The notes: generated from the sequence alone by a model not told the origin. Positions 1 through 48,073 are shown, counted from the first letter of the stretch. The stretch: DNA of 64,000 nucleotides from a virus (IMGVR_UViG_3300031992_004563:64001-128000); one strand, 5' to 3'. A program made the numbers and translations.

Positions 1-114
1 AGTAAGAAGATGCAAATTCCGAACAGTGGCTTGGGGAAATATAATTGCATGTTTATTTCCCTATAATCCAATAGTTGAGAAAACAACTTAAATAAATCAA
101 AGTAAATTTACTTC

Positions 115-196
115 AGCGAGATAGTTTAATATTTGCTACCAGAATACTGTGCACATGACACAGTGGATGTCAGTTGAAGTCTGGCTCTCGCAACCA
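115..196 (+). tRNA. Atypical tRNA-Met(CAT)-like RNA with encoded CCA
   Basis: GCGAGA/TCTCGC acceptor with 1:72 mismatch and ACCA end; CTGTG-CACATGA-CACAG anticodon arm with A33 instead of U33; T-arm GTCAG-TTGAAGT-CTGGC. Confidence 0.6.
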
Positions 197-584
197 ATAG
201 TTGATGTAAACAACTTTAAAAACCAATATTAAACCACGAAAAAGACTAGAGTTACAGCGATTTCCAGTAGCCGAGGACGAAGCCGTGTGGGTCACCATTG
301 AAATCAAGACCTCTTCTAGTGAGAAGGGTGACATTACTCTCTGGAATTTACGAGTAATGGGATGGGCCAAAAACAACACTATGTGGTTTATACTTATAGT
401 TGAAGGAAAACAACTTTAAAAAAGACAATAACCTATGAATAATTAGGTGCGTTAAACCAGCTACACAAATGCTGTATGTGATAGTGATAAAATGCAGCCA
501 TGGAGGCTAACAAAAAGATTGCAAGCTTTTTGAATGCATTAATAACTTCCATGATTAAATAGTTGAAGGACATACAACTTTAAA

Positions 585-671
585 AACCCGTTGGTGTTTC
601 AGCGGATACAAACACACAAAGGGAGCGTCGGCCGAGTCCACAGAGGGTTGAACCCGTAGACCCTCAAACTT
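585..671 (+). ncRNA. Structured RNA, paralog 1
   Basis: Shares AACCCGTTG..ACAAAG..GAGRGTTGA..TAGACYCTCAAACTT layout with 882-1007. Confidence 0.55.
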
Positions 672-881
672 ATAGTTGAGGTACAACAACTGAAAAAACC
701 AATAAAAGTATTATAACTGAAGTTATTTTACTACGTTAACATATCCACAACCGTATATCTTGAAAAATAGTGGTGGTTCACAAAACAAATGTTTATCATT
801 CGAATAATTCATAAGTATCCATGGAAGGCTTATGATGCGGATACTGTTAATATTTTATAGTTGAGGGACAACAACTTACCA

Positions 882-1007
882 AACCCGTTGATGGCTCAGT
901 GCTGGAATATGCGAGTTGGAACCATACAAAGTGCGGTTACGTTACGAGGCACCACGAGAGTTGATTGGGTATCAGGTATTTAACCGTCGGACTAGACTCT
1001 CAAACTT
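882..1007 (+). ncRNA. Structured RNA, paralog 2
   Basis: Same layout as 585-671, with a compensatory stem change GAGGGT/ACCCTC to GAGAGT/ACTCTC. Confidence 0.55.
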
Positions 1008-1103
1008 ATAAAATATCTTATTTAAGGGCTGTCTTAAGGACACTTTGGATAGGGTGGAGAATACATAAAAAGAGTATTCGTATAAAATAAGATATTTTAA
1101 TAT

Positions 1104-1177
1104 TGCCCTGTAGCTCAATTGGCTAGAGCGTCTGATTTTGGTTCAGAAGGTTGGGGATTCGAACTCCTCCAGGGCAA
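1104..1177 (+). tRNA. tRNA-Gln(TTG)
   Basis: Cloverleaf; TCTGA-TTTTGGT-TCAGA anticodon arm. Confidence 0.85.
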
Positions 1178-1184
1178 CATAGTG

Positions 1185-1273
1185 AAATATATAGCTCAAT
1201 GATGGCGCACTAAAACATGTAGAGCACCGGCCAGTTAAGTCGGCGATATGAGGTTTGATTCCCATTATATTTT
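1185..1273 (+). tRNA. Atypical tRNA-Asn(GTT)-like RNA
   Basis: AAATATA/TATATTT acceptor, enlarged D-loop, CCGGC-CAGTTAA-GTCGG arm with A33, weak T-arm. Confidence 0.5.
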
Positions 1274-1344
1274 GAATCGGTCACTGATATTGTCAGGAAG
1301 CAATTTCTGGCTGGGATATAAAAGTATCACACTGATAAACTATT

Positions 1345-1650
1345 TTGAAACTTATATATAAATTATATTATATTAGTAAAACTAAAGAGATAAAGAAAAA
1401 TATAGTTAGACCAAATCTGACTGAATTTAGAGAGTTATATCTTAAGTCATTGGAAGAATTTGAGTTATAGCCAATTTATAAAGATTTGATTGAACTATAT
1501 TATGAATTCAAAAAGTCTAAACTTAAGTATAGACTTTCTATAGACTAGTTTGATCTATAGTTTTCTAGTTTAAACTCATCTAAATCTAATAAGTGCATTT
1601 ATATTTTGATTCTTTTGAATTTTTGTTCTAAAAGTTATAAAATTGTATAA
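1345..1650 (+). CDS. Possible hypothetical protein (TTG start, 3 in-frame TAG)
   Basis: Open for 101 codons only under code 15; no homology recognised. Confidence 0.3.
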
Positions 1651-1753
1651 ATGTTAATAGTTTAAATACCTAATAAACAATATTGCATAAGGATGTTCCT
1701 ATTTTATAATCACAAAGTTTGATTGCAGTTCATACTCCTCGCAATATTTAAAT

Positions 1754-1826
1754 TGGGAGATCAGCTAATCGGTTAGGCTTCATCTCTGATAAGGATGCCA
1801 TCCGGGTTCAAGTCCCGGTCTCCCAA
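1754..1826 (+). tRNA. tRNA-Ile(GAT)
   Basis: TGGGAGA/TCTCCCA acceptor; CATCT-CTGATAA-GGATG; GGTTCAAGTCC T-arm. Confidence 0.85.
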
Positions 1827-1870
1827 CAAATGAAACAATTTAATATATTTGTAATATAATATATAAATAA

Positions 1871-1945
1871 CGGGTAGTAGTTCAGTCCGGTTAGAATGCT
1901 GCATTTGGGATGCAGAGGTCGTGAGTTCGAATCTCGCCTACCCGA
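1871..1945 (+). tRNA. tRNA-Pro(TGG)
   Basis: Cloverleaf; CTGCA-TTTGGGA-TGCAG. Confidence 0.93.
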
Positions 1946-2532
1946 CAAAATAATAATTAAAAATATTGTTTAATGCATTTGGGCGAGAAGCATTGAACGA
2001 TTGATGCTCATCCTGAACAATGGTTTGACTCCAATACGTCCATGCTAAACGGCAATATAAAATAAGGATTTATTATTAAATAATAGAAAATAATAATTCA
2101 ATGTCTCTCATGTTAGGCGATCAGGTACAGAGACGGATGATTATAGATAGTATAATTTGTTAATTAAAAAGTCGGTGCAAATCCGGCGTAAAATTTAAAA
2201 AATAATTTAATTTTTGCACATAGTATTAAATTATAATTTGTTGTTAAATAAAAGTGCAATATAAAAATTAAATTATAATACATAAATTTTAAATAGATTT
2301 AAATGAAATTGAATTATTATTTAAATTTCCAAGTAAATTTAAAAATCGCTAATATGCTCGGATAGGTATAAGCATACATTAATTCGATGGCCAAATGATT
2401 AATTATGAGTTGGTGGGTGATTATATTGAAAATTGCATATTGAAAAGGAGCAAATTTAATAGAGAAATATTATAATTATTTGTTTAATTATAATAGAGTA
2501 GCTCGCAACAATTATTTTCCGAATTTTTAAAT

Positions 2533-2675
2533 GGCCCATTCGTCTATCGGCTAGGACGCCAGATTTACGTTGGAAAGAAAACCATACTATTAAAAACTCC
2601 AGTTTGGAATATAATATTTGATTATATTATATTTCACTCATTCTGGAAAGAGCAGTTCGATTCTGCTATGGGCTA
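2533..2675 (+). tRNA. tRNA-Glu with 71-nt insertion in the anticodon loop (CTC or TTC)
   Basis: 5' half GGCCCAT..CCAGATT and 3' half (C)TCATTCTGG..ATGGGCTA flank an insert at about 2566-2637; the anticodon arm matches the neighbouring intact tRNA-Glu. Confidence 0.85.
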
Positions 2676-2699
2676 CTTTACAATTAAAATTAAAAATAT

Positions 2700-2778
2700 G
2701 GATCATTCGAATATCGGTTAGTTCGCCAGATTTTCATTCTGGAAAGGTTTTAGGGTTCGACTCCCACATGATCTACCA
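2700..2778 (+). tRNA. tRNA-Glu(TTC)
   Basis: CCAGA-TTTTCAT-TCTGG; encoded CCA; imperfect T-stem. Confidence 0.8.
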
Positions 2779-2897
2779 AATTAAACTTGCAATCCAACGA
2801 TTACTATATGTAAGTTCGGGATTTGGATGGGCACTACCAAACGGACCGAGAACCGCGTGCATTCGAGATTGGTGACGGTGTGGAGAGACACACTCTT

Positions 2898-2972
2898 GGT
2901 CCGGTAGCTCAGTGGTGTAGTAGCAGGACACTCATAATGTCAAGGTCGGGGGTTCAAATCCCTCTCGGACCA
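2898..2972 (+). tRNA. tRNA-Met/Ile2(CAT)
   Basis: Cloverleaf; GACA-CTCATAA-TGTC. Confidence 0.85.
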
Positions 2973-3309
2973 CGTGAAAAACCGTAGTGTATACTTTATA
3001 TGTTTCACCAAAATGCGGTAACCTCCATATGCCGGCAAACATAAAATATGGCAAGGACAAAGTGAAAACGTATTTTCAGAAAAAAGTTGAAATTATATAC
3101 TGAATGTAATAGAGTCTGGTCATGGCCTGACATTTTGTAGGAGAGTTAACTATTCTGCAAGGTCATATGGAATCAACCCAGTGAAAGACTACGTATATAT
3201 CTCATGAGATTTCAACTTCATTATGGTGCTCTTCTAGAGAGCATGCGGGACAGCGACGTGGCAACCGCAGTGGAAGATTCTCTTCTCCAATAAATACTAG
3301 GCGTCTCCA

Positions 3310-3341
3310 ATAGTTGAAATATGGATAACAACTATAAAACC
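3310..3341 (+). repeat. Seventh copy of the ATAGTTGA..CAACT hairpin motif
   Basis: ATAGTTGAAATATGGATAACAACTATAAAACC, directly after TCTCCA and just before a tRNA-Met. Confidence 0.75.
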
Positions 3342-3350
3342 ATATAATAT

Positions 3351-3422
3351 AGCGGGGTAGAGCAGTGGTAGCTCGTCAGGCTCATAACCTGAAGGCCGGG
3401 GGTTCGAATCCCTCCCCCGCAA
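3351..3422 (+). tRNA. tRNA-Met(CAT), initiator-like
   Basis: 1:72 mismatch, GCGGGG/CCCCGC acceptor, TCAGG-CTCATAA-CCTGA. Confidence 0.9.
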
Positions 3423-3529
3423 CAGAGGCCCATGTCTGAAATGGCTTGCAGGTTCGAGTCCTGTCTTTGGTGTTTCATCATTTTATGGTGTTCCTACCGA
3501 GGTGGCGAAAGTGGTAAACGCGTGGGTAA
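3423..3529 (+). tRNA. Circularly permuted tRNA-Leu-type gene (3' half 3423-3472, 5' half 3496-3529)
   Basis: Long variable arm, GGTTCGAGTCC T-arm and CTTTGGT come before ACCGAGG-TGGCGAAAGTGGTAAACGCG; acceptor strands and TGGGT/GCCCA anticodon stem pair across the halves. Confidence 0.75.
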
Positions 3530-3736
3530 GATTGTTGTTGGCTATAACAACATTAAACAAATATAGCAACTTTAACTAATATATTATGTTAGACACTAAT
3601 TATATTCCTTAAATGAAAAGTAAAGTATTGAGTAATAGAATACATGAGGGTTCGTACCCTGGAGTAGAAATCGACCAAGAAATGCATATAATTATATGGG
3701 TGCAACTCCCATAATAATATTTTAGTTAATCATATT

Positions 3737-3811
3737 GGTATCATCGTTCAACGGCTAGGATGCAACACTGTCACTGTTGTGATGCGGGTTCGATTCCCGC
3801 TGGTACCGCCA
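3737..3811 (+). tRNA. tRNA-Asp(GTC)
   Basis: CAACA-CTGTCAC-TGTTG; encoded CCA. Confidence 0.93.
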
Positions 3812-3848
3812 ATTTAGGTTAAGTCCAAAGATATCCAGGTAGTTTGTA

Positions 3849-4121
3849 AGGATTAAAGAATAGAACTTTAAACACTTCGCTAATATGCTTTTGAGGGAGC
3901 ACATGGAATATCGAATTGTTACCGGCGTAACATGAACCGGGAGTCGTAAGGAACATAGTCCGAAGTCAACAAAATGAGAATTTGATGCGTAAGCCAGGTG
4001 TGCGACGAACTGGACATCGCCTCTCAATAACGCAAACTGGACAAGTGTAACCAGATAGCTGTCGTATATTAGTCTATTCAATGGTATACGTCTCAGAGCA
4101 CTTCGGCGGACCTCTAATCCT
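3849..4121 (+). ncRNA. Candidate ~270-nt structured RNA
   Basis: GC-enriched, non-coding, closed by AGGATTA/TAATCCT. Confidence 0.4.
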
Positions 4122-4554
4122 AAATTTTTAATTTAAACATAAATTTGTAAATCAAATCCTGGGTTAATCGCCGGGTTGACGGTTCGGAAAAAAGACGAAC
4201 TAGGCATGCAATACTGCTAAGAGAAACTTTTTGTATTGCGCGGACTTTGGTGGTTGAAGCGCAGAATGCAGATATTGATTAACTGAAAACCATCTTTTGG
4301 ATATATGTTATTGGTTTAACATATATTCACTCTAAAGCAACACGCATTATCAATTAAGTAGGTTGCTCCATATTAAGTGAAAGTAATAGTTGACTACTAT
4401 ATGATAACTTAAAGAAGAGTTGAAGTGGTACATAGACTAATTAGGGCTAAATAAATTGGTTGACGAGATAAAATGGGAACTAGTCATTCCCATTCTCGAA
4501 AAAGTTAATTCTTTAAGAATTTTTGGAAAACTTTAAAAACGAAAAATTCACCGA

Positions 4555-4629
4555 GGGCCCTTCATATAGTCTGGTTTAGTATGTCAGCTCTGCAAGCTGA
4601 TCACGCCGGTTCGAATCCGGCAGGGTCCA
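4555..4629 (+). tRNA. tRNA-Ala(TGC)
   Basis: G3:U70 pair in GGGCCCT/AGGGTCC; loop TCTGCAA (C33). Confidence 0.75.
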
Positions 4630-5376
4630 CTGATTTTCAATAAGTAACAGAAACGAGGTTGAGGTATAGATGATGGGAAAATATGACAGAGACTAAACAG
4701 AGACGACTTATTGAAACAACACTATAATATCTAATATTCAGTGGGGAGTAGGCTTGACCGAAATTAAAACATCTGACCCATGTTGGTAGTTAGATATTTG
4801 AAATAACGTACGAAAAAGATGAAACAAACTCCACCGTTTCATACATTGGGAGATGATCTTTTGGTGTTGTGGAAGCCTGCAATGGTGTAAGAAAATCGCA
4901 ATGGTTTATCCATATTATAACGTGTAATATGGGATTTAAATTCCACCAATTTTTGAATTATAATTAAATGCGTAGAACGATCAATAAAATGCGACATACG
5001 AAAGTCACATGGGATAAATGGAATTTGCTATTATACCGCAATTCATAAGTATGTTCACTGTGGAGAATCGGGAATCAGTGGTTTAATTATTTACACTTGG
5101 AGATTACGTATCAATATAGGTGTGTATATTTTAAAAGTGACGGTCGGGGTGAAAATCCAAGCGAGTTTAAACGGGAAGGAAGAGAGAAAATTTATCAAGT
5201 CATATGCTCCTGATAAATATACGGCTTTTAAAATAAATTATATCCTGTATGGGTTCTATACACCGAGCACTTATAATCCTCGTCATTATATACTGCTCGT
5301 TAAAATTATTTGGTTTATAGCACTAGTCTTGATTTTTCTTAAATAAATATAATATAAAATACATTTATTAGTTAAT

Positions 5377-6093
5377 ATGTTATATTGTAAATATTGTGGC
5401 AAAGAATGTAAAAATTTAAATTCATTAAGACAGCATGAGATTAGGTGTAAACAAAATCCTAATAGAATTAAAATGGATTTATCAAAATGGAAGTGCCCAC
5501 CAGAAAAAAGAAAATTAGGAACAAAAAATAAAGTTGCTTTAACTAATGGAAATAAAAACAAATATCTATTTCCTAATGAAGCAGAAGAATTTTTACAAAA
5601 TAATTTAGATTGGCATAAAGGATTTACAATTATAAATCATGGTCCAAATTTAGGAATTGCATCCACTCCTGAAAAAGAGGCTGAGAGAAAAAGAAAAATT
5701 TCAGAAACAATGAAGAAAAATCCATTAGCTGGTGGTAGAAGAATAGGTAGTGGACGAGGAAAACAAGGATGGTATAAAGGAATTTATTGTGATAGTTCTT
5801 GGGAACTTGCATTTTTGGTATATTATTTAGATCATAATAAAAATATAAAGAGATGTGAAGAACGAAGAGAATATATTTTTAATAATGAAAAACATACTTA
5901 TATTCCTGATTTTATAACAGATGATGGTATTATAGAAATAAAGGGATATAAAACACAACAATGGAAATCCAAATTAGAACAAAATCCTGATATAAAAGTT
6001 TTATATGAAGATGATATTAAACCATATTTAGATTATGCAACATCATTATATGGCCAGTATTATTGGGAAGTTCTATATGAAAATAAAAAATAA
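5377..6093 (+). CDS. Free-standing homing-endonuclease-like protein (Zn finger, NUMOD3-like, PD-(D/E)XK)
   Basis: CKYC..HEIRC, KRKISETMK, DSSWE, YIPDF..IEIKG motifs; located inside the tRNA array. Confidence 0.75.
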   Translation: MLYCKYCGKECKNLNSLRQHEIRCKQNPNRIKMDLSKWKCPPEKRKLGTKNKVALTNGNKNKYLFPNEAEEFLQNNLDWHKGFTIINHGPNLGIASTPEKEAERKRKISETMKKNPLAGGRRIGSGRGKQGWYKGIYCDSSWELAFLVYYLDHNKNIKRCEERREYIFNNEKHTYIPDFITDDGIIEIKGYKTQQWKSKLEQNPDIKVLYEDDIKPYLDYATSLYGQYYWEVLYENKK

Positions 6094-6097
6094 GTTT

Positions 6098-6182
6098 GGA
6101 GGCATGCCGAAGTGGTCATAACGGCACTGACTTGAAATCAGCTGTGGCTCACGCCCCGGGGGTTCGAATCCCTCTGCCTCCG
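6098..6182 (+). tRNA. tRNA-Ser(TGA)
   Basis: Long variable arm; CTGA-CTTGAAA-TCAG. Confidence 0.92.
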
Positions 6183-6311
6183 CCGTTAAATATAAACCTG
6201 CATAGTAAAGTTCCTATTATAGGTTCGATTCCTAAAATTACTGGATGGTTATTACTTTCCGCGGGTTTAACTTATAATAAAATGCATAAAGTTGTTCCTA
6301 TTTAGTTTATT

Positions 6312-6399
6312 GAAAAGCAGGAAGTCGGGGGTTCGAGTCCCTCTCTCCACACAAATAATATAAAATGTGGAGATAACTCAGATGGTAGAGTGCCCGCCT
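6312..6399 (+). tRNA. Circularly permuted tRNA-Phe(GAA) (3' half 6312-6351, 5' half 6367-6399)
   Basis: GAAAAGCAGG..GGTTCGAGTCC..TCTCCACA precedes GTGGAGATAACTCAGATGGTAGAGTGCCCGCCT; joining gives a perfect GTGGAGA/TCTCCAC acceptor and loop CT-GAA-AA. Confidence 0.85.
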
Positions 6400-6459
6400 A
6401 AACATACACTTCGCGTTTTATCCCCCTTATAATAGTTTGAACATTGCTATTTAAATAAT

Positions 6460-6643
6460 GTTACGCCTTACCCGGTTTAAGTTGAAAGAGTGCCCGGGCT
6501 GTAGATCTAAAAGCCAAAAGCTAATCTATAAAAAACTTATCGCTCCATTTGCACTTGGAAGGTTGAGTGCAATTTTTAATATATCATTACTGAGGTGGAT
6601 AGGAGAAGCATATAAAACCCGAATCCTGAGGAAATGGCGTAAC
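6460..6643 (+). ncRNA. Candidate structured RNA
   Basis: Closed by GTTACGCC/GGCGTAAC; internal hairpin TTGCACTT..GAGTGCAA. Confidence 0.4.
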
Positions 6644-6995
6644 GACAAAAAGTTAGAAGGGCCGAAGAAACCGTCGTTGCTTGATATACGGTGTGGAAAG
6701 GCGTGGTAAGTAATGATTATTTTTATAATTCTCAAACCTTGTGGGTGCCAGAAAACACCACATGCAGAAAGTATTTAATATTGCTAGCGATTAAAGAAAT
6801 TTGGTTCGTTATTGAGAATTTTTTCTTTAATAAACATTATCGAATCCATTTAAGTAATATTCGATATAACTGAGAATAATTACATTAATATTAAATGGCG
6901 TTGCTACTCATCTGGTATGGAGGCATACTGAGTACCTTGGTCTATTACGAGAAGATAGGCCGGTGTTTAAATTTAAGATAATGTTTATTTTTAAT

Positions 6996-7078
6996 GGGAG
7001 AGTTCCTAATGCGGTAATTAGGACCAGACTGTAAATCTGGCGGCTTAGCCTTCGGGGGTTCGAATCCCTCCTCTCCCA
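6996..7078 (+). tRNA. tRNA-Tyr(GTA)
   Basis: CCAGA-CTGTAAA-TCTGG; long variable arm. Confidence 0.92.
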
Positions 7079-7099
7079 CAGTTTTTAATAAACTTATAT

Positions 7100-7174
7100 G
7101 GTGTCCGTAGCTCAATTGGTAGAGTGCTGGATTGTGGTTCCAGTGGTTCTCGGATCATACCCGAGCGGGCACCC
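7100..7174 (+). tRNA. tRNA-His(GTG)
   Basis: G-1; CTGGA-TTGTGGT-TCCAG. Confidence 0.9.
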
Positions 7175-7307
7175 CTACTTAGGATGTACACCAGGCAGAC
7201 TGTTGAGTCATATAAACAGTATAATCCTATTTTGAATGTTGGTTTTAGAGTGAGGGGTTCTGAAAGACTTAAAGAGAACTCACCTACTGGATGCATACAG
7301 TGATTAT

Positions 7308-7375
7308 CGCCACGGGAATCGTAGTTGATTTTTAGAGCCCTTAGCTAAGGTGTCGGAGCGTTACCGGCCGTGGTG
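7308..7375 (+). ncRNA. Anticodon-less tRNA-like RNA
   Basis: CGCCACG/CGTGGTG acceptor and T-arm GTCGG-AGCGTTA-CCGGC; anticodon arm replaced by CCTT-AGCT-AAGG. Confidence 0.5.
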
Positions 7376-7387
7376 TCAAAATTACAT

Positions 7388-7469
7388 GGGCTTATGGCGT
7401 AATAGCGAGCCGCGCCAGACTTAGGATCTGGTTCCGAAAGGAGTAAGGGTTGGAGTCCCTTTAAGCCCA
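7388..7469 (+). tRNA. tRNA-Leu(TAG)
   Basis: CCAGA-CTTAGGA-TCTGG; long variable arm. Confidence 0.9.
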
Positions 7470-7483
7470 CATTTAAAAAGAAT

Positions 7484-7677
7484 AATCATTCGATATTTTT
7501 ATGATGTTATATTAAGGGTTCAAATCCCAATTGGGGGCTTGTCGACGAACAAGATATGTATCTTATATAGCTATACTCAAAGTCCCTCGCATTTTTCGAG
7601 TGTTATATAAGTAAGGTCGGACATTATAAAGAAATTGTTAAAACCGTGGAGAGGTGCACATCAAAACGTGAATGATT
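7484..7677 (+). ncRNA. Candidate structured RNA with a T-loop-like hairpin
   Basis: Closed by AATCATTC/GAATGATT; contains GGGTTCAAATCCC. Confidence 0.35.
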
Positions 7678-7680
7678 AAT

Positions 7681-7756
7681 GGTCCTTTAGCTCAGCTGGT
7701 ATTAGAGCACTTGGCTTACATCCAAGGGGTCGTAGGTTCGAATCCTACAGGGACCA
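7681..7756 (+). tRNA. tRNA-Val(TAC)
   Basis: CTTGG-CTTACAT-CCAAG. Confidence 0.93.
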
Positions 7757-7850
7757 CAATAAGAATAAGAAAAAATAAAGGATTCCAAACAGTTATTCAA
7801 AGTATCTTTTCTTTTTATGTTGTTTTTCTTGGTTCTAACTTTGAATATTT

Positions 7851-7921
7851 GCAGGTATAGCACAACAGTCGTGCACCAGTTTGCCATACTGGGGATCCCG
7901 GGGCAGCACCGGGTATCTGCT
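7851..7921 (+). tRNA. tRNA-Gly(GCC)
   Basis: CCAGT-TTGCCAT-ACTGG; atypical T-loop. Confidence 0.8.
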
Positions 7922-8035
7922 CAACATTGCAGGTTCTTATTAGAATGAAAGTCTGGAAAATCCAGTGCTAATAAGGTGAAATTAAAATTGTAAGAGACTG
8001 CAAAGGGGTTGAATAATGTGGTCAACCCATAAAAA

Positions 8036-8111
8036 CTAGGTGTAGAGGAGCCCGGTTTATCTCGCGTGAATTGGAATCACGAGCACGCAGGTTCGAATCC
8101 TGCCATCTAGA
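8036..8111 (+). tRNA. tRNA-Pro(TGG), second copy
   Basis: CGTGA-ATTGGAA-TCACG; CTAGGTG/CATCTAG acceptor. Confidence 0.85.
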
Positions 8112-8114
8112 CTT

Positions 8115-8319
8115 CGCGAATTAGTGTAATATGTGCCCGTAAAATTTCAGATGTACGGTTAACACAACGGCCAATGTTAATTAGTCTGAATGGTGTTCCT
8201 TTAGTATGAAATGTATATACAATGTACAGTGTGTATACAAAGTAAGAAACAGGTTGGGAGGATCAGAGCACGGCACCCGGAGATGGTGTTAGTTACGTGG
8301 AAGTCGTAGTTCGCAACCA
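8115..8319 (+). ncRNA. Enlarged tRNA-like RNA ending in ACCA
   Basis: C-GCGAAT/GTTCGC-A-ACCA acceptor, D-stem GTGT/ACAC, T-arm TACG-TGGAAGT-CGTA; about 125 nt in place of the anticodon arm. Confidence 0.5.
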
Positions 8320-8793
8320 ATAAATTAATATTCGAGGGTCTACGAGTGAATTAACACGGAGAGCCAAACCAAAAACAACCGAGTAGGTTTGGAGAGAGTA
8401 GAGATGGTGTGGCGTAAGTGGACAGGTTGTAGTTTGTGATATGCCTAGAAGTGGTGGCCTGCTGGAAAATGGTGGCATGTAGAATATTGATTTTTAATTT
8501 TTTAATGTGAAGGATAACACAATAAAACCCTTGTTGCTAACATTCTTGGGCAGGTAATGAAAATGGCTAGGTGTATGACCGGTGACTTGGTGAAATTCCA
8601 ACATTCCTAGTGAAGAAAAATGATTCGCGGTTAATTTTTCTTAAAGGTCATTTTTAAATATAATCACGATACTAAGACGCGTACCGACGGGTCAGTTCCA
8701 GTATTCTGGTATAAAACTCTCATATATGTCCAAATATATTTTGGTGCACCTGAAGTTGGATGAAGAGAGGAACATTAGTATGTGTGGTTTTTT

Positions 8794-8865
8794 GCCCCGG
8801 TGGTGAAATGCATATCACGAGTGACTACGGATCACTTATTCTGGGTTGGAATCCCAGCTGGGGTA
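8794..8865 (+). tRNA. tRNA-Arg(ACG)
   Basis: AGTGA-CTACGGA-TCACT. Confidence 0.9.
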
Positions 8866-8925
8866 CTATAGAAACAAAGTTCATTTAGAGCCTATAATAA
8901 TTAAAATAATAAAACTATATTATAT

Positions 8926-9471
8926 ATGAGAATCGATTCATTAGAAAGCATCTGGAATAACTTGGGGTATGTTATTCAGAAACATAATGATTATAAAAAG
9001 ACTAAGAGAAATCTTAGAAAGCTGGTTTATAATTGTTCTCCAAAACATATGAAAGATGGTTCAATAAAAAACACTTTTATTGAAGTTGGATATCTTTATT
9101 TAACAAGTGCTGTTAAAGATGATTCTCAAGGTTTTGTATGGTTTGATTGTACTGATCATATTAATTATGATGAAGAACATAGAATTATATTCCCAACAAT
9201 GCCTGCACAATTTTGGGATAAATTAGTTGGAAAGCATAATACTAATATTGCTCAACTTTATAATGATAAAACAAAAGAATATTTGCATAAAGATTCTAAT
9301 ATAGAATGGAATATTGTAAAGGGCCAAGCATTATTTACTACAAGGCAAGAAGCAGAGGATTATATTAAACAATGTGAAAATGGTGAAATTGAGCTTCCTG
9401 AATTCTTTTTAAAAGTTGAAAGAGTTATGACTAATCCAACACGAGAAGATTATGAGAACATTGGAAAATAA
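8926..9471 (+). CDS. Hypothetical protein
   Basis: 181-aa ORF with phage-like composition. Confidence 0.8.
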   Translation: MRIDSLESIWNNLGYVIQKHNDYKKTKRNLRKLVYNCSPKHMKDGSIKNTFIEVGYLYLTSAVKDDSQGFVWFDCTDHINYDEEHRIIFPTMPAQFWDKLVGKHNTNIAQLYNDKTKEYLHKDSNIEWNIVKGQALFTTRQEAEDYIKQCENGEIELPEFFLKVERVMTNPTREDYENIGK

Positions 9472-9483
9472 ACAACAATAATT

Positions 9484-9723
9484 ATGGAACTTAAAGATAT
9501 TGTAAAAGGCCAAGCCGATTTATCTTGTGTAATTGCAGGAGGAATTGCTGAATATATTTTAACAGATATAAATGGAATCAAATATCAATTGCAAATTAAT
9601 TTGGCAGATAAACATGATGTTGGTGAAACTGCTACATTCCAAACACATTATGATAAAGCAATTATTTTAATGAGATGGATTCGTAGAGCAATTGAAAAAG
9701 ATGAATTAATTAAACTTAATTAA
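9484..9723 (+). CDS. Hypothetical protein
   Basis: 79-aa ORF in tandem with the previous gene. Confidence 0.75.
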   Translation: MELKDIVKGQADLSCVIAGGIAEYILTDINGIKYQLQINLADKHDVGETATFQTHYDKAIILMRWIRRAIEKDELIKLN

Positions 9724-9731
9724 TAATTCTT

Positions 9732-9804
9732 GAGCCGGTAGCTCAGATGGTAGAGCAGCAGACTCTTAATCTGCGGGCCGTGGGTTCGAGTCCCACCCGG
9801 CTCA
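9732..9804 (+). tRNA. tRNA-Lys(CTT)
   Basis: GCAGA-CTCTTAA-TCTGC. Confidence 0.95.
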
Positions 9805-9809
9805 CAAAT

Positions 9810-9883
9810 GGCGAGGTAGCTCAGTTGGTTAGAGCGCAGCATTCATAATGCTGAGGTCGTGGGATCGTGACCCTCCCTCGCTA
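9810..9883 (+). tRNA. tRNA-Met(CAT)
   Basis: CAGCA-TTCATAA-TGCTG. Confidence 0.88.
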
Positions 9884-9890
9884 CATAAAT

Positions 9891-9964
9891 ATCCTATTAG
9901 CCCAATCGGTAGAGGCAATAGTTTCAAAAACTATACAGTGTTGGTTCGAATCCAACATGGGATA
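9891..9964 (+). tRNA. tRNA-Leu(CAA), short variable arm
   Basis: ATAGT-TTCAAAA-ACTAT; GGTTCGAATCC T-arm. Confidence 0.8.
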
Positions 9965-10032
9965 CAAAAGATAAATGACATTTATGGTTATTGCACATCC
10001 AAAAAGCATGTATAAAAATAAAAATAAATGTT

Positions 10033-10359
10033 ATGAAGAAGATTTTTTTAATTATGTGTCTTCTATCATCATTTATCTTTTGTAATGCCGAACCTTCGTA
10101 TGAAAGTTCAACAAAAAAGGCAAAAGAATCACGCATAGAAGTGGTGAATGAGAAGACAGTTATTTTCAAAAATGTCGTAAAAATAGAAATAATTACTAAA
10201 GATAAAAATCAAATAACATATGTATATGATTTGAAAAACAGTAAATTAGTAATTGTTGCTAAAGGTGCATTTGAGATTGATACAAAAATGGGTGATTATT
10301 TAGTTCAATCTTCTAAGAAAATAACAAAAACCGAATATGATTTTATTGAAGAAATTTAA
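10033..10359 (+). CDS. Hypothetical protein with signal peptide
   Basis: MKKIFLIMCLLSSFIFCNA N-terminus. Confidence 0.7.
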   Translation: MKKIFLIMCLLSSFIFCNAEPSYESSTKKAKESRIEVVNEKTVIFKNVVKIEIITKDKNQITYVYDLKNSKLVIVAKGAFEIDTKMGDYLVQSSKKITKTEYDFIEEI

Positions 10360-10582
10360 TCATATTTATTTATGTTAAATATAATTAAATATATTTATGA
10401 ATAATTATATTTTTATATTTAACAAAATTTTTGAAATAAATATAAAAAGAAAATAATTTTTAAGAGGTGGTATCCTTAAAAACTATTTTTAGAAATATAA
10501 GTTATAATTATAAAGCATTTTAATGTTTTATTATACAAGATACCACTTTTAAGTATAATAATCATTTTAATGCTTTTATTTT

Positions 10583-11785
10583 ATGAAGTTAGTTGAACAA
10601 CATATTATAAAATCTAATCATTAGTTTTACAAAGAACTTGATAATTTATGCTTTTTATCTAAGAATCTATATAATCAAGCTCTTTATAGGATTAGACAAT
10701 AGTTTTTTGAAGATAAAACTTTTAAAAATTATTATGATTTAAATAGAGAGCTTCATGATGAAAACTAGATAGACTATAGATCACTTCCATCTAATACATC
10801 ACAAGAAACATTAAAACTAGTTAACCAAAATTATAAATCATTTTTCTAGAGTTTAAACAAACAAATTAAAGGCGTTAAAATTCCTAAATATTTAGATAAA
10901 ATTAAAGGAAGATAGATAGTTGTTTATAATTATTCAACAATATGTGGAAAAAAAGATTTAGGATTTTTTAAAATTCCAAAAACTAATTTACAATTTAAAA
11001 CTAAATAGAAAAATATTAAGCAAGTTAGAATAGTTCCTAAAAATAATTATATAGTTTTAGAAGTTATTTATGAAGCTTCTATCAAAGAATTATTAAAAGA
11101 TAATAAAAGATATATGTCTATTGATTTAGGAATTGATAATTTAGCTAGTTGTTCTAGTAATGTAACTAAATCTTTTATAATCAATGGAAAACCTGCCAAA
11201 TCAATAAATCAATATTATAATAAAAAGAAAGCTAATCTTCAATCTGAATTAAAACTTAAACAAAATAAAAATACATCAAAGCAAATATAGAATTTAACTT
11301 TAAAGAGAAACAATAAAATAAAAGATTATTTTCATAAAGCATCCAGATATATTGTTAATCAATTAGTTAACCAATCCATTAATACACTTATAATAGGAAA
11401 GAATGATGGATGGAAACAAGAGACAAATCTAGGTGTTGTTAATAATCAAAATTTTGTAAATATTCCTCATTAGATGTTTATAAATCAACTAAAATATAAA
11501 TGTCAATTAGAAGGAATAAATGTCATTGAACAAGAAGAAAGTTATACTAGCAAAGTAAGTTTTTTTGATAATGACTATATTCCAACTTATAAACAAAATG
11601 ATGAACTATTTAATCCATCTGGAAAAAGAATCAAAAGAGGTTTATATAAAACTAAAAATAATTTATTAATTAATGCTGATATAAATGGTTCATTAAACAT
11701 AATGAGAAAATATTTAAATGTAGTTTGTGATGACTTAATTAGTTTAACAAATAGAGGGTTTGTGATTAATCCAGTTAAAATTTAG
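10583..11785 (+). mobile_element. tnpB: IS200/IS605-family TnpB RNA-guided nuclease, 400 aa under code 15
   Basis: MKLVEQHIIK..SKNLYNQALY, SIDLGIDNL (RuvC-I), QEESYTS, NADINGSLNI; about 8 in-frame TAG; no tnpA; inverted repeat GTGGTATC/GATACCAC upstream. Confidence 0.9.
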
Positions 11786-11854
11786 TTTTAACAAATAAAA
11801 ACTTGTGAATAGTTTTTAATATCATTTGATTCCAAATGTATCAGAAATTTATAA

Positions 11855-12028
11855 GAATTTATGCAGTCCATCGCGCCCATTCCAAAAGATATAAGAGGTG
11901 AGGAAGTTCAGGACACTTATTTGGAAGTGAAAGTCTAAGTATAGGAGGTTACCCAAATTACTGCCCCATGGTAAGACGAATAGTTAAATGATGGAAATAG
12001 GTACAGAATCCTGGCTATTACATAATTC
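11855..12028 (+). ncRNA. rnpB: Minimal RNase P RNA
   Basis: GAGGAAGTTCAGGA (11900) and ACAGAATCCTGGCT (12003) match CR-I/CR-V and form P4 with a bulged U; termini GAATT(T)ATG/CATAATTC pair as P1. Confidence 0.8.
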
Positions 12029-12197
12029 ATATATTTAATAAAAATAAATGTTTAATAATTATGATACCAACATTAACAGTTTACATGCTAATTGCTATAC
12101 CTATTATCTATATAGCAATTAAAAAATAAATAAAATGGTGTTATAATTAAAATTTACAACACCATTTATTTTTATTTAAAATTAAAACCTAAACACA

Positions 12198-12596
12198 ATG
12201 AATTACAACATTCAAGAAAAGAAACACTATTTCATTGTAAATGGCGTTAAAGTTCATTGGAATTTTAAATTATTGCCTAAAGGTTTTGAAGCAATAACAT
12301 TATTTGGGCATGTTTATGATGTTCATCCAAAAAATGAATTAAAAACATTTTTAGAAACCTATTGGGGAAGAGTAATGGTTAATCATGAAAGAATTCATAT
12401 AATGCAAGCCGAATCTTTTAAACTTAGATATTTTGCATTTTATATAATATATCTATGGTGGTGGATAAAAGGTTTGTTTAAATATAATTTTAGTAATTTT
12501 GAATCATACTATAAAATTCCATTTGAAAGAGAAGCTTATCATAATGAAAAAGATTTTTATTATGATGAAGTACATTGGAAAGAATTTAAATGGTGA
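12198..12596 (+). CDS. Hypothetical protein with HExxH motif
   Basis: NHERIH..IPFEREAY. Confidence 0.75.
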   Translation: MNYNIQEKKHYFIVNGVKVHWNFKLLPKGFEAITLFGHVYDVHPKNELKTFLETYWGRVMVNHERIHIMQAESFKLRYFAFYIIYLWWWIKGLFKYNFSNFESYYKIPFEREAYHNEKDFYYDEVHWKEFKW

Positions 12597-12640
12597 TTTT
12601 TGTAATGGTCTTTACAAAAATGATCATTTATTTTTTATTT

Positions 12641-12715
12641 GCGGGTGTAGCTCAGTTAGCTTAGAGCGTCTGACTTCCAATCAGAAGGCCCTGGGTTGAA
12701 GTCCCAGTACCCGCA
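12641..12715 (+). tRNA. tRNA-Gly(TCC)
   Basis: TCTGA-CTTCCAA-TCAGA. Confidence 0.92.
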
Positions 12716-12800
12716 CGAATGTTAAGGTAGCGCCTTAACTAGTTGCAGTTATGAGATCGCGGAATCTGCAATGAATAAAAATAATAAAAGCCGCGTACAT

Positions 12801-12886
12801 GTCTCCGTAGCTCAGTTGGTTCCGCAAGGCTTGAGAGCACCCGCCTTTTAAGCGGGGGGTCGTGGGTTCGAATCCCACCGGGGACA
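12801..12886 (+). tRNA. tRNA-Lys(TTT) with enlarged D-loop
   Basis: CCCGC-CTTTTAA-GCGGG; D-loop carries a CC-GCAA-GG mini-hairpin. Confidence 0.88.
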
Positions 12887-13142
12887 CAAAAATCCAATTT
12901 AATTTGGTTGACTAAATTTCAATAAGAAATTCGCTACAAACACATAGCGTTACGATTGCTGTTTGACTTGAATATTCAAAACGAATATTAGATTTGTTAA
13001 TTAGATTAAATTAACACTATTTAGGACTATATTAGATTGCTATGAAAAATGAGTGATTCTAATGATATGGCGAGGAGTCCTTCACGAGGTCAGTGTTTTA
13101 GAGCCATATCTTATTTTTAATCTCAATACGCAAGTATATGAA

Positions 13143-13175
13143 AAAGGAGACTGGAATGAGTCTCCTTTATTTTTT
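13143..13175 (+). terminator. Intrinsic terminator
   Basis: AAAGGAGACT-GGAATG-AGTCTCCTTT then a T-run. Confidence 0.75.
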
Positions 13176-13189
13176 ATTTTTATTAAATT

Positions 13190-13240
13190 AACTTCTATTT
13201 TTTAGATTACATAAAAAATTATAATTTTGTATCGTTAATT
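13190..13240 (+). promoter_or_regulatory. Class 1 promoter (AACTTCTATTTTTTAG..TAATTTTG)
   Basis: Recurs at about 18766, 28379, 30038 and 61534; TAnnTTTG is the Bacteroidetes -7 element. Confidence 0.75.
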
Positions 13241-13257
13241 TAAAAAAGATAAAAATT

Positions 13258-14100
13258 ATGGCATTTATCAAAAATGAAAGTCCAAAAATTGGCGATTGGG
13301 TAATCACACAGAAATCACACTCTGCATGTGCTGGTACAATGACTAAAGGCAGTCGTGTAAAAATCACTGACGTTGATCCAATGAGAGGTTATTCAATTGT
13401 TGATGAGGAAGGAAATCGTCTTTGTGAAATTGGGTGGATAATTTAAAACATAAAATTATGGAAGGTTGGTTAGCACGAGATAAATCTGGTTCTTTATGTT
13501 TTTATATATATGAACCATATAAGTCAGCTGCTGGTTTTTGGAAGCCAGTTGAGGATGAACCATTAGGAAACCAAGTAGATGAATGTGAAGCATCTAAAAA
13601 TATTAAATGGGAAGATAATCGAGCCACTCATGTAAAAGTTAATTTTGAAATTTTGTAATAATATGAAAACATCTATTAGAAAAAATGCATATGCTGTTCC
13701 AAGTGGAAGTTGGGATATCGCTGAACGAGTTCATGTTTCCGGAAAACATGGACGTGATAGAAAACAACATTATCTTTCCAAACAAGCGCGTTTGGCTGTT
13801 AAAAATGGAAAGGTTGATGGTGTTGATCTTAAAAATATTGAGGAGTAAATAACTACAAAATAAATTTTAAAAATGGATTCAAAACGACAACAAGAAATTA
13901 AAAATGAAATGGCAGGCCGAATAATTGATGCCTGTGGTAGCACCGGGGTTTTAGCGGCAGTGGATAACGATAAACTGGAAGGCGATGTTAAAGTTCGTCA
14001 TCAGAAAGCTATGGCAGAAGCTAAAAAGCTTACCGGTCGAAAGAAACGAATTGATCCTAATGTTCAAGCAATATTTGCACGAATGTATGGATTAATTTAA
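13258..14100 (+). CDS. Four small hypothetical genes (13258-13446, ~13458-13658, ~13663-13848, 13873-14100)
   Basis: Tightly packed ORFs after a class 1 promoter. Confidence 0.7.
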
Positions 14101-14221
14101 AGCAAAGTAGACTTTTTCAGAAAATAGTCTATAATAAATAATAAGAATTAATTTTGTATAAGGTTTATTCAAAAGGTTGAATTTATATACCTTACAAAAT
14201 TTATTTTGATCTTTGATTTAT

Positions 14222-14309
14222 GGCGCGGTGGTGGAATTGGTATACACGAGGGACTTAAAATCCCTTGGGGGCCTATTGCTCCTTGAGAGTTCGAGTCTCT
14301 CCCGCGCTA
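14222..14309 (+). tRNA. tRNA-Leu(TAA)
   Basis: AGGGA-CTTAAAA-TCCCT; long variable arm. Confidence 0.93.
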
Positions 14310-14317
14310 CAATCATT

Positions 14318-37217: not shown

Positions 37218-37248
37218 TAATGGTTGAGAAAATTCTCAACCATTTTTT
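37217..37248. terminator. Terminator between convergent genes
   Basis: AATGGTTGAGAA/TTCTCAACCATT hairpin with a T-run. Confidence 0.75.
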
Positions 37249-38437
37249 AATTATATACCGGGCGAATTGATATTCCTTCTTTTCTTTTTTGATGATGTCC
37301 AAAATGTGGTTTATATACATCATGTTTATCAAACCAAAGACTATGTGCCTCATTAATTGATTCTTCACTTATAGTTGATGTCCAATAAACACCGTGTTCA
37401 CCAGATTTTTTAAGCTCAGTTGTATACCAACCTGCTGCAGGCAAAAATATATAATTTTCATTAACAAGACTTTTTAATAACATTCCATTTAATCCTTCAT
37501 ATCCTAAATAATTAGTCTTCCATTCATGACTAGTATTATCTATTAATTCTTCTACCTATTCTTTTGTTGGAATATGAAATTTAAATTCTCCAATATGCAA
37601 TTTCTAATATGCAGCATCATCTTCTGGCAATAACTATGTTAAATTATCTTGATATGTGTATTTTATCATATTATACATATTATTATAATAAACTGATGGT
37701 TTTGCATATTTATATGTTTTATCAGTGTACTCATCTTTTAATCCATCTAATTCACCCCACGCATATTTGTCACCAAGCCAATCTGCTTTACAATCACAGT
37801 ATTTATGTTTATATCTATCATAATCAAATCTTTTATCACACCCTAAATTAAATTTACACCACCATGTTTTAGATGGAAGACCTAAATCAACAAAATATTT
37901 TTCTAACTAAAGTCTATTTCCTATAGCATCATTACTATCAATAATATCTTTTAATGATGTAGTATCAATTTTCTCATTATCTTCTAAATCATCTAATGCC
38001 AATGCAAGATTATGCATTTTTTCTATTAATGGCTTTTGATAATATTCAATATCATGCTTCTATATATAATATTCTATATCAGAATCATCATCTATTTGAA
38101 TTGGATTAAAATCGCATTTAATGTGTTCAATATAAATATTTTCATCTACAAATATATTGAATAAATCGTCTTCTCTAATAGAACCTTTATAGAATAAAAC
38201 AAAATCAATATCTGAATTTTTTCTTGGATTGCCAAAAACCCTGGAGCCATGCGCATATATACAAAGATAATCTATTTCATTTTCCCCAGTGTAATTGGTA
38301 TTAATTATCTAATTATCTTCTAAAACTTCATAGACATTATATTGTGCAACTTCCTCAAGTTCTGCACAAGAATGATAATCTAAGAATCCTTGAACTTCCT
38401 AATTTTTATGTATTTTATGATAACACTCTATAAACAT
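37247..38437 (-). CDS. Nucleotidyltransferase domain fused to LALDD linker and VDLGLPS domain (code 15)
   Basis: HGSRVFGNPRKNSDIDF; LALALDDLED; FVDLGLPSKTWW..IFLPAAG..YWTS..SIRPV; single frame through several TAG. Confidence 0.8.
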
Positions 38438-38439
38438 AA

Positions 38440-39225
38440 TTATTTTAATCCATTTACAGTTTGATTTATAATCATTTTCTTTAACCAACTTGGAATATTT
38501 TTTAATTCCATTTTAGATCTTGAAAACATTGCAGTAACTTTACAATTTTGGTGTATATGCCAATGCCAATTATTTATATTCTAATTAAATTTAGATGCCA
38601 TGAACATTAATTGCATATTATCTACATTAGAAACATTCCAATTTTTAATAGAATCATTATTAAATTTAGAATTGCTAAACATAGAATTCATATTTTTTAC
38701 ATTTAAAATATTCCATTTACTAAGATCACCATTAAAATTGCTGCCAGCAAATAACCCATCCATGTTAATTACATTACTAACGTTCCATTCAGAAACATCT
38801 ACATTACCAGGGAAATTTGCAAGTAAATATGACATATTTGTAACTTTTGATGTATCTATCCAATTTAAATCTATGTTTTTATATTTGTCAACTAAACCAA
38901 AAATAATATTTGGCACCGCTTTTCTAAACTAAAAATCCCCAATATCTCCTGGTAATGCAAGTTTAACTTTTATATGAAGTTTATTAACGGCATCTACAAA
39001 TTTAAAATAATTTTCATATGTTATACATTCAGCTAATGATTTTTCGCATGTTTTAATTATAGCTGGAAGATATTTTTTATATATCATTTTACATCTAATA
39101 ATATCTTCAACATCTATTATATCACTTGATGCTGTATAATTATTATCTTCAATATTTTCAAAATCGTCAAGTGCTAACTAGATACCTCTATTGACGGCTT
39201 CTAATATTTGTTTATAATTCTTCAT
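38440..39225 (-). CDS. LALDD-leader protein with DUF285/BspA-like repeats (code 15)
   Basis: WIDTSKVTNMSYL, WNVSNV repeats; FN(TAG)NI. Confidence 0.85.
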
Positions 39226-43232: not shown

Positions 43233-43505
43233 ATGAACTAGATACACGTGAACATACCTCAAATTCAATGGTTTAATCATGGTGAAAAGACTATTGAAGA
43301 ATTAGATAATTTATCATTATAGAGATTTAACATTAAAAATATCAAATCAGTCGACGACTACAAAGATTTAAAGAATTTTTATGCTTTTAAGGTGCTTGAT
43401 TTAGATGAAAAATCTGAAACAGGCTATTATGGTATGTTCATTAATAAAGAATATGCGGCAGCAGTTAAAGCTGCATTAGATAAATGGAAAAATAGCAAAA
43501 AATAA
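43233..43505 (+). CDS. Hypothetical protein (2 in-frame TAG)
   Basis: 90-aa ORF after a class 2 promoter; missing from the track. Confidence 0.6.
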
Positions 43506-43509
43506 TATT

Positions 43510-48059: not shown

Positions 48060-48073
48060 TTCCTCCTTTATTT

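Follow-up and report, generated by a model that had tools for sequence, protein, structure and literature searches.

Which RNA is encoded by the short stretch between a tnpB gene and the following protein gene at positions 11855-12028 of the plus strand of IMGVR_UViG_3300031992_004563:64001-128000, a viral DNA of 64,000 nucleotides (nt; the whole of it is referred to as the window)? The stretch stands out by its GC content (0.38-0.39 as compared to about 0.2 in the surroundings), and an earlier note made from the sequence alone had claimed that it encodes a phage-borne RNase P RNA of about 175 nt lacking most of the specificity domain (S-domain). RNase P RNA is seen as a two-domain housekeeping ribozyme of cells. 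Our analysis indicates that the window RNA is almost certainly a homologue of the RNase P catalytic domain (C-domain). As judged from sequence comparison, this C-domain is probably of bacterial type A and the RNA probably serves as the RNA subunit of an RNase P which matures tRNA 5' ends.

Matches to RNase P models

In a covariance-model search (cmscan) of positions 11840-12045 only, the Rfam model RNaseP_arch (RF00373) matched 11855-12028(+), i.e. the whole mini RNase P RNA gene of 174 nt, with 32.5 bits and an expectation value (E) of 4.2e-8. The alignment spans the entire model (positions 1-288), whereby the 129 positions of the S-domain are reduced to 2 nt. For a 156-nt relative located on a 364-kb phage contig (L103) the model of bacterial type A RNase P RNA, RNaseP_bact_a (RF00010), was matched with 45.0 bits and E 2.9e-13. 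Here, model positions 1-367 are covered, the three S-domain blocks of 15, 15 and 110 positions are replaced by 3, 2 and 3 nt, respectively, and 25 positions of helix P18 are replaced by a single nucleotide (P denotes paired and J joining regions of RNase P RNA). The RNA is present in a single copy in the 380-kb source record, as indicated by one nhmmer match (E 2.5e-41) and in agreement with BLAST. In both cases cmscan lists the best family of the clan only. As background for the scores, passages of PMC3579882 give 14.3 bits as the highest score of RF00373 on random genomes and 10.2 bits as its highest on true type T RNase P RNAs.

Homologues and covariation

Relatives were found by one exact and two degenerate motif scans. 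The looser degenerate pattern hit six loci on six contigs in IMG/VR, all of which are family members, and gave 71 matches in metagenome contigs, comprising 37 members and 34 chance matches, which were dropped. The same pattern gave 21 matches in 185,579 prokaryotic species (one genome each) and 0/21 were members; therefore, at the stringency of the pattern the RNA family was not seen in cellular genomes. A blastn search of 11790-12060 against 50,697 GenBank phage records returned no match. One member (L147), which is cut by a contig end, was left out of the alignment. The final set consists of 28 distinct full-length RNAs of 156-176 nt including the window RNA, all of them from viral and metagenome contigs, and divides into two subtypes, one with a long P3 and one with a P3 of 3 base pairs (bp) capped by a GNRA loop (GCUGGAAACAG).

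A secondary structure of 46 pairs was drawn from the RNase P architecture on a MAFFT alignment (A1), comprising P1, P2, one pair of P3, P4, P5, P6, P15 and P16. Among the 1287 cells of this structure (one pair in one sequence each) 98.1% are able to pair, as compared to a mean of 83.8% in shuffled alignments (0/500 shuffles as high). Compensatory changes were found in 26 of the 46 pairs, the number of doubly changed cells amounts to 201 (shuffle mean 56.6), and the covariation score is 0.445 as compared to 0.164 in the shuffles. When the pairing partners were slid by 1-3 columns, 31-42% of the cells paired. The most telling part of the covariation is that of the long-range pseudoknots P4 and P6. 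P4 occurs as UUCAGGA/UCCUGGCU, UUCGGGA/UCCCGACU and UUCAAGA/UCUUGGCU, and P6 as AUUUGG/CCAAAU, AAUGGG/CCCAUU, ACUUGA/UCAAGU and ACUGAG/CUCAGU. The homologues share ancestry and the structure was chosen with the RNase P fold in mind, both of which have to be considered for these numbers; the slid controls together with the number of pair types argue that neither prior knowledge of the fold nor kinship explains the covariation.

Architecture of the RNA

The outermost helix P1 is formed by 11855-11863 and CAUAAUUC at 12021-12028, with 96.8% of the cells paired and compensatory changes in 9/9 aligned pairs of the covariation alignment. In the same alignment P2 connects GUCCAUC (11866-11872) with GAUGGAA (11990-11996), with 96.4% of the cells paired and 5/7 pairs compensatory. 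The P3 hairpin (11874-11900) is variable in length, and its closing C-G pair is invariant in 28/28 sequences. Its inner pairs were read by eye and left out of the pair counts; the two subtypes align differently in this part.

The sequence GAGGAAGUUCAGGA (11900-11913) resembles conserved region I (CR-I) and comprises J3/4 and the 5' strand of P4. It aligns with G61-G74 of E. coli M1 RNA (rnpB) including A65, A66 and U69, contains one unpaired U (11907 or 11908), and positions 46-55 of the window RNA, which fall into this region, are invariant in 28/28 homologues. Its counterpart is the CR-V-like ACAGAAUCCUGGCU (12003-12016), which consists of J2/4 (ACAGAA) and the 3' strand of P4 and aligns with E. 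coli A347-U360; within it, ACAGAAUC is invariant in 28/28. P4 itself is formed by 11905-11913 (9 nt) and 12009-12016 (8 nt), resulting in 8 bp and one unpaired U, with 100% of the cells paired and 2/8 pairs compensatory.

At the point where the S-domain would exit, the RNA continues with P5 (CACUU/AAGUG, 11914-11929, 2/5 pairs compensatory). The 6-nt loop of P5 (11919-11924) is at the same time the 5' strand of P6 and pairs with CCAAAU (11953-11958), located in the loop closing P16; 100% of the cells are paired and 4/6 pairs are compensatory. The adjacent J5/15, AAA at 11930-11932, is invariant in 28/28 and is the counterpart of E. coli C247-A248-A249. It is followed by P15 (GUCU at 11933-11936 with AGAC at 11974-11977), in which 100% of the cells pair and 1/4 pairs is compensatory (U-A in 20 and C-G in 8 sequences). 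The internal loop between P15 and P16 has the 5' side AAGUAUA (11937-11943), invariant in 28/28, and the 3' side AUGGUA (11968-11973). In the alignment with M1 RNA, the GGU of the latter (11970-11972) falls opposite E. coli G292-G293-U294; the last three nucleotides of GGUA (G-U-A) do not vary, and the first G hardly does. P16 (11944-11949 with 11963-11967) pairs in 99.4% of the cells, with three of six pairs compensatory and three varying on one side. The CR-IV-like J15/2, GAAUAGUUAAAU at 11978-11989, is a mostly invariant single strand of 12 nt, which aligns with E. coli A328-U335.

Comparison of these results with the earlier note gives a clear picture for most of its claims. The coordinates it had proposed are identical to the ends of the RF00373 match, and the strands it had assigned to CR-I- and CR-V-like motifs indeed form a P4 with a bulged U. 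The idea of a phage-encoded RNase P RNA of about 175 nt agrees with the end-to-end matches to RF00373 and RF00010, the covariation, the alignment with the M1 RNA core and the phage origin of the record. The loss of the S-domain even goes beyond the claimed loss of most of it, since the domain is wholly gone and a 6-nt loop is left. A short hairpin ACTTA..TAAGT, which had been placed at the position of the S-domain, did not survive: 72.9% of its cells pair, 0 pairs are compensatory and three of its five pairs are disrupted in between 8 and 18 of the 28 sequences. Instead, this stretch forms the 5-bp P5 (11914-18/11925-29) and then P15.

Conserved core and missing parts

The single-stranded joiners GAGGAAGUUC, GUGAAAGUC, AAGUAUAG, G-U-A of GGUA, GACGA, A-G..U..AAUGA and ACAGAAUC are invariant in 28/28 sequences, while the helices vary. 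In the bacterial enzyme, such joining regions form the catalytic site and contact the substrate. After alignment of the 5' and 3' parts of E. coli rnpB to the phage RNAs, GAGGAA and the unpaired U are found opposite M1 RNA G61-A66 and U69, AAA (11930-32) opposite C247-A248-A249, GGUA (11970-73) opposite G292-G293-U294-A295, AGUUAAAU opposite A328-U335, and ACAGAA (12003-08) opposite A347-A352. In M1 RNA, A248 contacts the substrate nucleotide N(-1), the 3' CCA of the tRNA is bound by pairing with G292/G293, and the U69 region binds metal ions. Passages of PMC10465520 and PMC11143913 state the roles of these residues in part.

Two parts of the canonical RNA are missing. The S-domain (P7-P14 with CR-II/CR-III), which reads the tRNA elbow, is absent, P5 being capped by the 6-nt loop in 28/28 sequences, and P18, whose loop docks on P8 in type A RNAs, is absent as well, J15/2 being the above-mentioned single strand of 12 nt. 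According to passages of PMC5839562, the C-domain of E. coli alone cleaves substrates, depends on a 'P6-mimic' and tolerates the loss of P18, which is dispensable for cleavage; the C-domain of Pyrococcus furiosus, which is devoid of P18, is described there as active without S-domain or protein. The layout of the phage RNA, with P6 kept and both P18 and the S-domain dropped, is the one which deletion work found sufficient.

Results that weigh against an RNase P RNA

A number of results speak against an RNase P RNA at this locus. Neither match reaches the curated gathering score of its family (32.5 versus 84 bits for RF00373; 45.0 versus 100 bits for L103 and RF00010). A Rfam scan of the whole window at gathering thresholds returned 20 tRNA matches only and missed the RNA, an E<=10 Rfam scan of 10000-12700 (2.7 kb) gave no RNase P match, and the genome-level RF00010 search of the phage record returned nothing, whereby the first-look filter also missed the real RNA. 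The RNase P matches emerged only in searches of about 200 nt, where the filters of cmscan are laxer. The Infernal search with RNase P models, which the earlier note had suggested, thus gave a match at 11855-12028 in its small form, which lies below the gathering score and was missed by the wider searches. For searches of this size the E values are significant, and the shortfall in score fits the deletion of the S-domain and P18. The genome-level RF00373 search yielded a single weak match at 47996-48073(+) of the window (11.7 bits, E 0.06), which compresses the whole model into 78 nt and is probably noise.

Furthermore, minimum free energy folding of the RNA is no better than that of shuffles (z 0.70 for the plus and 0.30 for the minus strand). 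J3/4 departs from E. coli, with GAGGAAG-UU in place of GAGGAAAG-U and hence one A fewer, and P4 has one pair more below the unpaired U than the E. coli helix. With our own model (R1) at E<=0.1 nothing was found in four further contigs of huge phages that carry related TnpB genes, among them a complete genome of 504 kb (best E 0.28); therefore, the RNA is not needed by all such phages. The protein partner RnpA (PF00825), which the reading has to assume, was not found in the 76%-complete phage record, and full CCA is encoded in only 2/20 tRNA genes of the window, so that CCA would have to be added first before it can make its full contact with GGU.

In favour of the RNase P reading there is a weak hint of transcription. 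Contigs of four metatranscriptome runs from four studies cover the RNA: run X1 contains a 1,511-base contig identical to 11196-12706 in addition to contigs of other family variants, run X18 a 227-base contig over 11849-12025, and runs X20 and X23 short contigs confined to the RNA. As assembled library contigs these give no ends, strand or level of a transcript, and carry-over of DNA is possible. Gaps in the coverage of 11000-12900 in runs X18, X20 and X23 were given no weight as evidence.

tRNA surroundings and proposed function

In 17/27 homologue loci a tRNA gene on the same strand lies within 8 nt of the RNA, and in 12 of these 17 on both sides. The RNA belongs to huge, TAG-recoded gut phages and is for the most part packed directly against tRNA genes. 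The window RNA and its nearest relative (L117) are located between two protein genes inside a tRNA region. ARAGORN found 30 tRNA genes and one transfer-messenger RNA (tmRNA) in the source record; nearly all tRNA genes lie within 46-78 kb of the record, and 21 of them fall into window positions 1-14,310. Out of 20 tRNA genes of the window considered here (1104-14309), 16 are preceded by T (position -1), and tRNA-His by G. Directly after the discriminator a C is present in 20/20 genes (CA in 12, CC in 4, CG in 2 and CT in 2), within a record of 28% GC. The T at -1 and the following C would suit recognition by J5/15 and GGU, respectively, based on the roles known for their bacterial counterparts.

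With respect to these features the following mechanism is proposed. The RNA may be freed from transcripts of the tRNA array by 3' processing of the preceding tRNA and an RNase P cut of the following one. Its contacts to a tRNA precursor would be made at the acceptor stem, at the 3' end (by GGU of the P15/P16 loop) and at N(-1) (by J5/15), the tRNA elbow being left unread, and cleavage in the P4 core would remove the 5' leader. As the phage record encodes no RnpA, that of the host is probably borrowed as protein partner.

According to the earlier note, an RNA without S-domain could suit tRNAs whose T and D loops are non-canonical. This rationale has a weak basis, because only 4/20 window tRNA genes have a non-canonical T loop. 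Two of them, tRNA-Gly (12641-12715) and tRNA-Leu (7388-7469), carry G in place of C at T-loop position 56 (TTGAAGT and TTGGAGT) together with ..AGC.. in place of the usual GG in the D loop, which looks like a swapped 19-56 elbow pair. Unusual T loops are also present in tRNA-His (ATCATAC) and one tRNA-Met (ATCGTGA).

A more far-reaching interpretation is possible, although we put it forward tentatively and consider it rather doubtful. The RNAs of 156-176 nt could be the smallest natural bacterial-type RNase P ribozymes, consisting of a catalytic domain held together solely by P6, with which huge recoded phages run their own tRNA 5' maturation, including that of odd-elbow tRNAs which the host may handle poorly. 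Phage tRNAs such as the two with G56 and a C where G19 would lie would be maturable, because the RNA would read the acceptor end only. Should this be true, decoding by the phage would be shielded from the host and could be turned on along with TAG recoding.

Alternative explanations

Conserved RNase P architecture does not necessarily require catalysis, and a non-catalytic mimic has to be weighed. As a decoy, the RNA could soak up host RnpA or bind tRNA precursors and thereby depress or redirect tRNA maturation of the host. The protein-contact regions of bacterial holoenzymes lie in the C-domain, which is the part kept by the phage, and without RnpA in the phage record any bound protein would be that of the host. 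The sequence of J3/4-P4 strays from the bacterial consensus, and a precedent exists in the RNase P-like RNA of camelpox virus, for which passages of PMC3001073 report no processing of pre-tRNA in vitro. We nevertheless regard a decoy as unlikely: J5/15 AAA, GGUA, ACAGAA and the unpaired U of P4, all elements of substrate contact which a sponge would not need, are invariant or nearly so in 28/28 sequences, and engineered C-domains of like design are active according to passages of PMC5839562.

An active RNase P-type ribozyme could also have main substrates other than tRNA 5' leaders, such as spacers of the tRNA array, the precursor of the tmRNA, or mRNAs with tRNA-like or hairpin-CCA structures, the loss of the S-domain having relaxed the choice of substrate. 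Cleavage of hairpin-loop model substrates by the C-domain alone, as reported in passages of PMC5839562, the tmRNA encoded by the phage and the position of the window RNA and the L117 RNA between protein genes would be in line with this scenario. It is judged rather improbable, since 17/27 loci have tRNA genes as immediate neighbours on one or both sides, the tRNA genes of the window carry the T at -1 and the C at +74 expected of RNase P substrates, and no alternative substrate was identified.

That the RNA is a decaying, now functionless remnant of an rnpB captured from the host, or a chance resemblance, is highly improbable. Scores under the Rfam thresholds and the absence of the RNA from other huge phages would be explained in this way; the 98.1% pairing kept through 201 doubly changed cells in 28 variants, the invariant joiners and E values of 4e-8 and 3e-13 would not. 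A fold kept in 28 variants along with invariant joiners therefore points to purifying selection on the fold and not to decay. Finally, a guide scaffold of the upstream TnpB (omega RNA or right-element RNA, reRNA), which had been the first expectation because of the TnpB gene just upstream and the GC-richer stretch, and since elements of this kind encode the guide RNA of TnpB at their 3' end, was rejected as practically negligible: the right end of the element lies at 11825, BLAST detected no part of 11855-12028 next to any of 80 related TnpB loci, L117 is an empty site with RNA, and 17/27 homologue loci adjoin tRNA genes and not TnpB.

Comparison with known RNAs and significance

Compared to bacterial type A RNase P RNA (RF00010; E. 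coli M1 RNA, 377 nt), the phage RNA, for which maturation of tRNA 5' ends remains the preferred role, shares P1, P2, P3, P4 with its unpaired U, P5, P6 and P15/P16 with GGU in canonical order. CR-I, CR-IV and CR-V align with M1 RNA G61-C70, A248, G292-U294, A328-U335 and A347-A352. In contrast to type A, it has neither the S-domain (P7-P14, CR-II/III) nor P17 and P18, is 156-176 nt in length instead of 377 nt, and is encoded inside tRNA arrays. As it misses the curated score of the family and two domains are gone, it was classed as a new structural variant rather than a regular member.

Among natural RNAs the closest analogue is the type T RNase P RNA of archaea, which, as described in passages of PMC3579882, keeps a type A-like catalytic domain without most of the specificity domain and is missed by standard Rfam models. 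The same passages describe type T as a cellular, archaeal RNA of 61-78% GC with a 3-bp P2, a shortened P15, a 2-nt P5/P15 linker and archaeal protein partners. The phage RNA differs in P2, P15, GC content and host, having a P2 of 7 bp, a P5/P15 linker of 3 nt, about 39% GC and a phage as its source; in addition, its short form best fits the bacterial model, and even the stub of the S-domain is wholly gone.

The same design of a catalytic domain alone, with P6 or a 'P6-mimic' needed if cleavage is to be efficient and P18 dispensable, is known from the engineered C-domains Eco CP RPR and Pfu C-domain of Mao et al. 2018 (PMC5839562), which the available passages describe as active with or without protein. 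Whereas these constructs are laboratory truncations with lowered efficiency, the phage RNA is a natural, conserved gene family, known from sequence. A virus-encoded RNA with some likeness to RNase P RNA is also found in the orthopoxvirus camelpox virus, the likeness being one of secondary structure only according to passages of PMC3001073. Unlike the poxvirus RNA so described, the phage RNA combines a complete C-domain core, covariation and conserved core nucleotides with 30 tRNA genes in the same phage.

For phages, theta ribozymes, which resemble the hepatitis delta virus (HDV) ribozyme, are described in passages of PMC10879173 as residing in tRNA regions of TAG-recoding gut phages, and a role in making the maturation of phage tRNAs independent of host enzymes is proposed for them. 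They are small, self-cleaving in cis and proposed to act on the 3' trailer, whereas the RNA described here would be a trans-acting RNase P homologue with a predicted role at the 5' end. The 5' step is assigned to RNase P in that paper, and its passages report none encoded by a phage. In the full-text literature searched, whose scope excludes subscription journals and bioRxiv supplements, no description of a phage-encoded RNase P RNA was found.

If the proposed function holds, a conserved RNase P RNA that is encoded by a virus and devoid of the entire substrate-recognition domain would be a novelty. It would represent a naturally occurring test of the minimal catalytic core, in agreement with the predictions of deletion studies that P6 is needed and P18 dispensable. 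The 5' step would join the other tRNA-maturation functions of large phages, i.e. the tRNAs, the tmRNA and the CCA-adding-enzyme-like gene of the present record as well as the theta ribozymes at tRNA 3' ends in related phages, and the question of phages hijacking host RnpA would become testable. With 156-176 nt the RNA is also small enough to be an appealing scaffold for structural studies as well as for guide-sequence-based RNase P tools. Annotation pipelines overlook such an RNA, as it was missed here by the Rfam gathering scan and two genome-level searches.

The phage record and its genetic code

The source record is an IMG/VR virus record of 380,519 bases, 76% complete according to CheckV, of which the window represents bases 64001-128000. 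It contains a large-terminase (TerL) domain (PF03237, 62 bits). With TAG read as sense, stop-free frames of at least 100 codons cover 88.0% instead of 71.8% of the genome, the number of such frames hardly shifting (521 to 544), and several long genes, among them three TnpB genes with 8, 11 and 13 in-frame TAGs, are open only in this code. On the basis of this gain, the TerL domain and its size the record is therefore assigned to a huge, TAG-recoded phage. The DNA and RNA runs containing the stretch are labeled as sheep and bovine gut. A full-size RNase P RNA was not found in the record by the genome-level RF00010/RF00373 search, the filter of which also missed the 174-nt RNA.

Sense TAGs occur in part of the genes only, with 2 to 22 TAGs per gene, and many other long genes are without TAG. 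TAG-using genes in the window are located at 37247-38488(-), 39992-41656(-), 43381-44313(+) and 54278-59092(-). A tRNA with CTA anticodon was not found by ARAGORN in the 76%-complete record; the program called an odd 94-nt 'tRNA-???' at record position 46548-46641. Outside the window, the record encodes a CCA-adding-enzyme-like protein of the PolyA_pol family (PF01743, 97 bits) at 322108-322506(-) within a 495-codon frame, and the tmRNA is located at 269450-269849(-) with the tag GEDEYAMAA. Jug phages (PMC12880540) were considered for comparison and set aside as a different group, for which passages of that paper report no alternative code.

Neighbouring TnpB element and strain variation

The tnpB gene at 10586-11791(+) stops 64 nt upstream of the RNA and encodes the domains OrfB_IS605 (Pfam, 8.4e-24) and Cas12f1-like TNB (2.9e-10). 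It is open only with TAG as sense, having 8 in-frame TAGs and an additional TAG two codons ahead of the TAA stop; two further TnpB copies in the record have 11 and 13 in-frame TAGs. The gene belongs to a TnpB-only insertion sequence (IS) element spanning about 10420-11825(+). Its left end near 10420 was derived by comparison with five relatives, and its right end, ...TTTTTAATATCAT at 11825, from seven loci (TnpB 77-87% identical) which share sequence up to this point and then diverge. L117 has the RNA and both of its neighbouring genes, upstream and downstream, in common with the window, while about 1.4 kb (window ~10373-11810) are missing, which corresponds to an empty site. As judged from these comparisons, the IS element is a later insertion ending 29 nt ahead of the RNA.

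A hairpin of about 30 nt between stop codon and right end is present in 6/7 close relatives and not in the window copy. In the IMG/VR contig L015 (262,727 bases) the end of another open reading frame (ORF) precedes tnpB instead of the usual left end, which suggests a two-gene form with TnpA and TnpB.

Just after the RNA, a segment of about 155 nt (12044-12197) is absent from L117, and the contig from run X20 joins 12025 to 12222, indicating an insertion or deletion between strains. The segment holds a hydrophobic ORF of 22 codons at 12062-12130 (MIPTLTVYMLIAIPIIYIAIKK) and, at 12133-12167, a 14-bp hairpin followed by a T-run.

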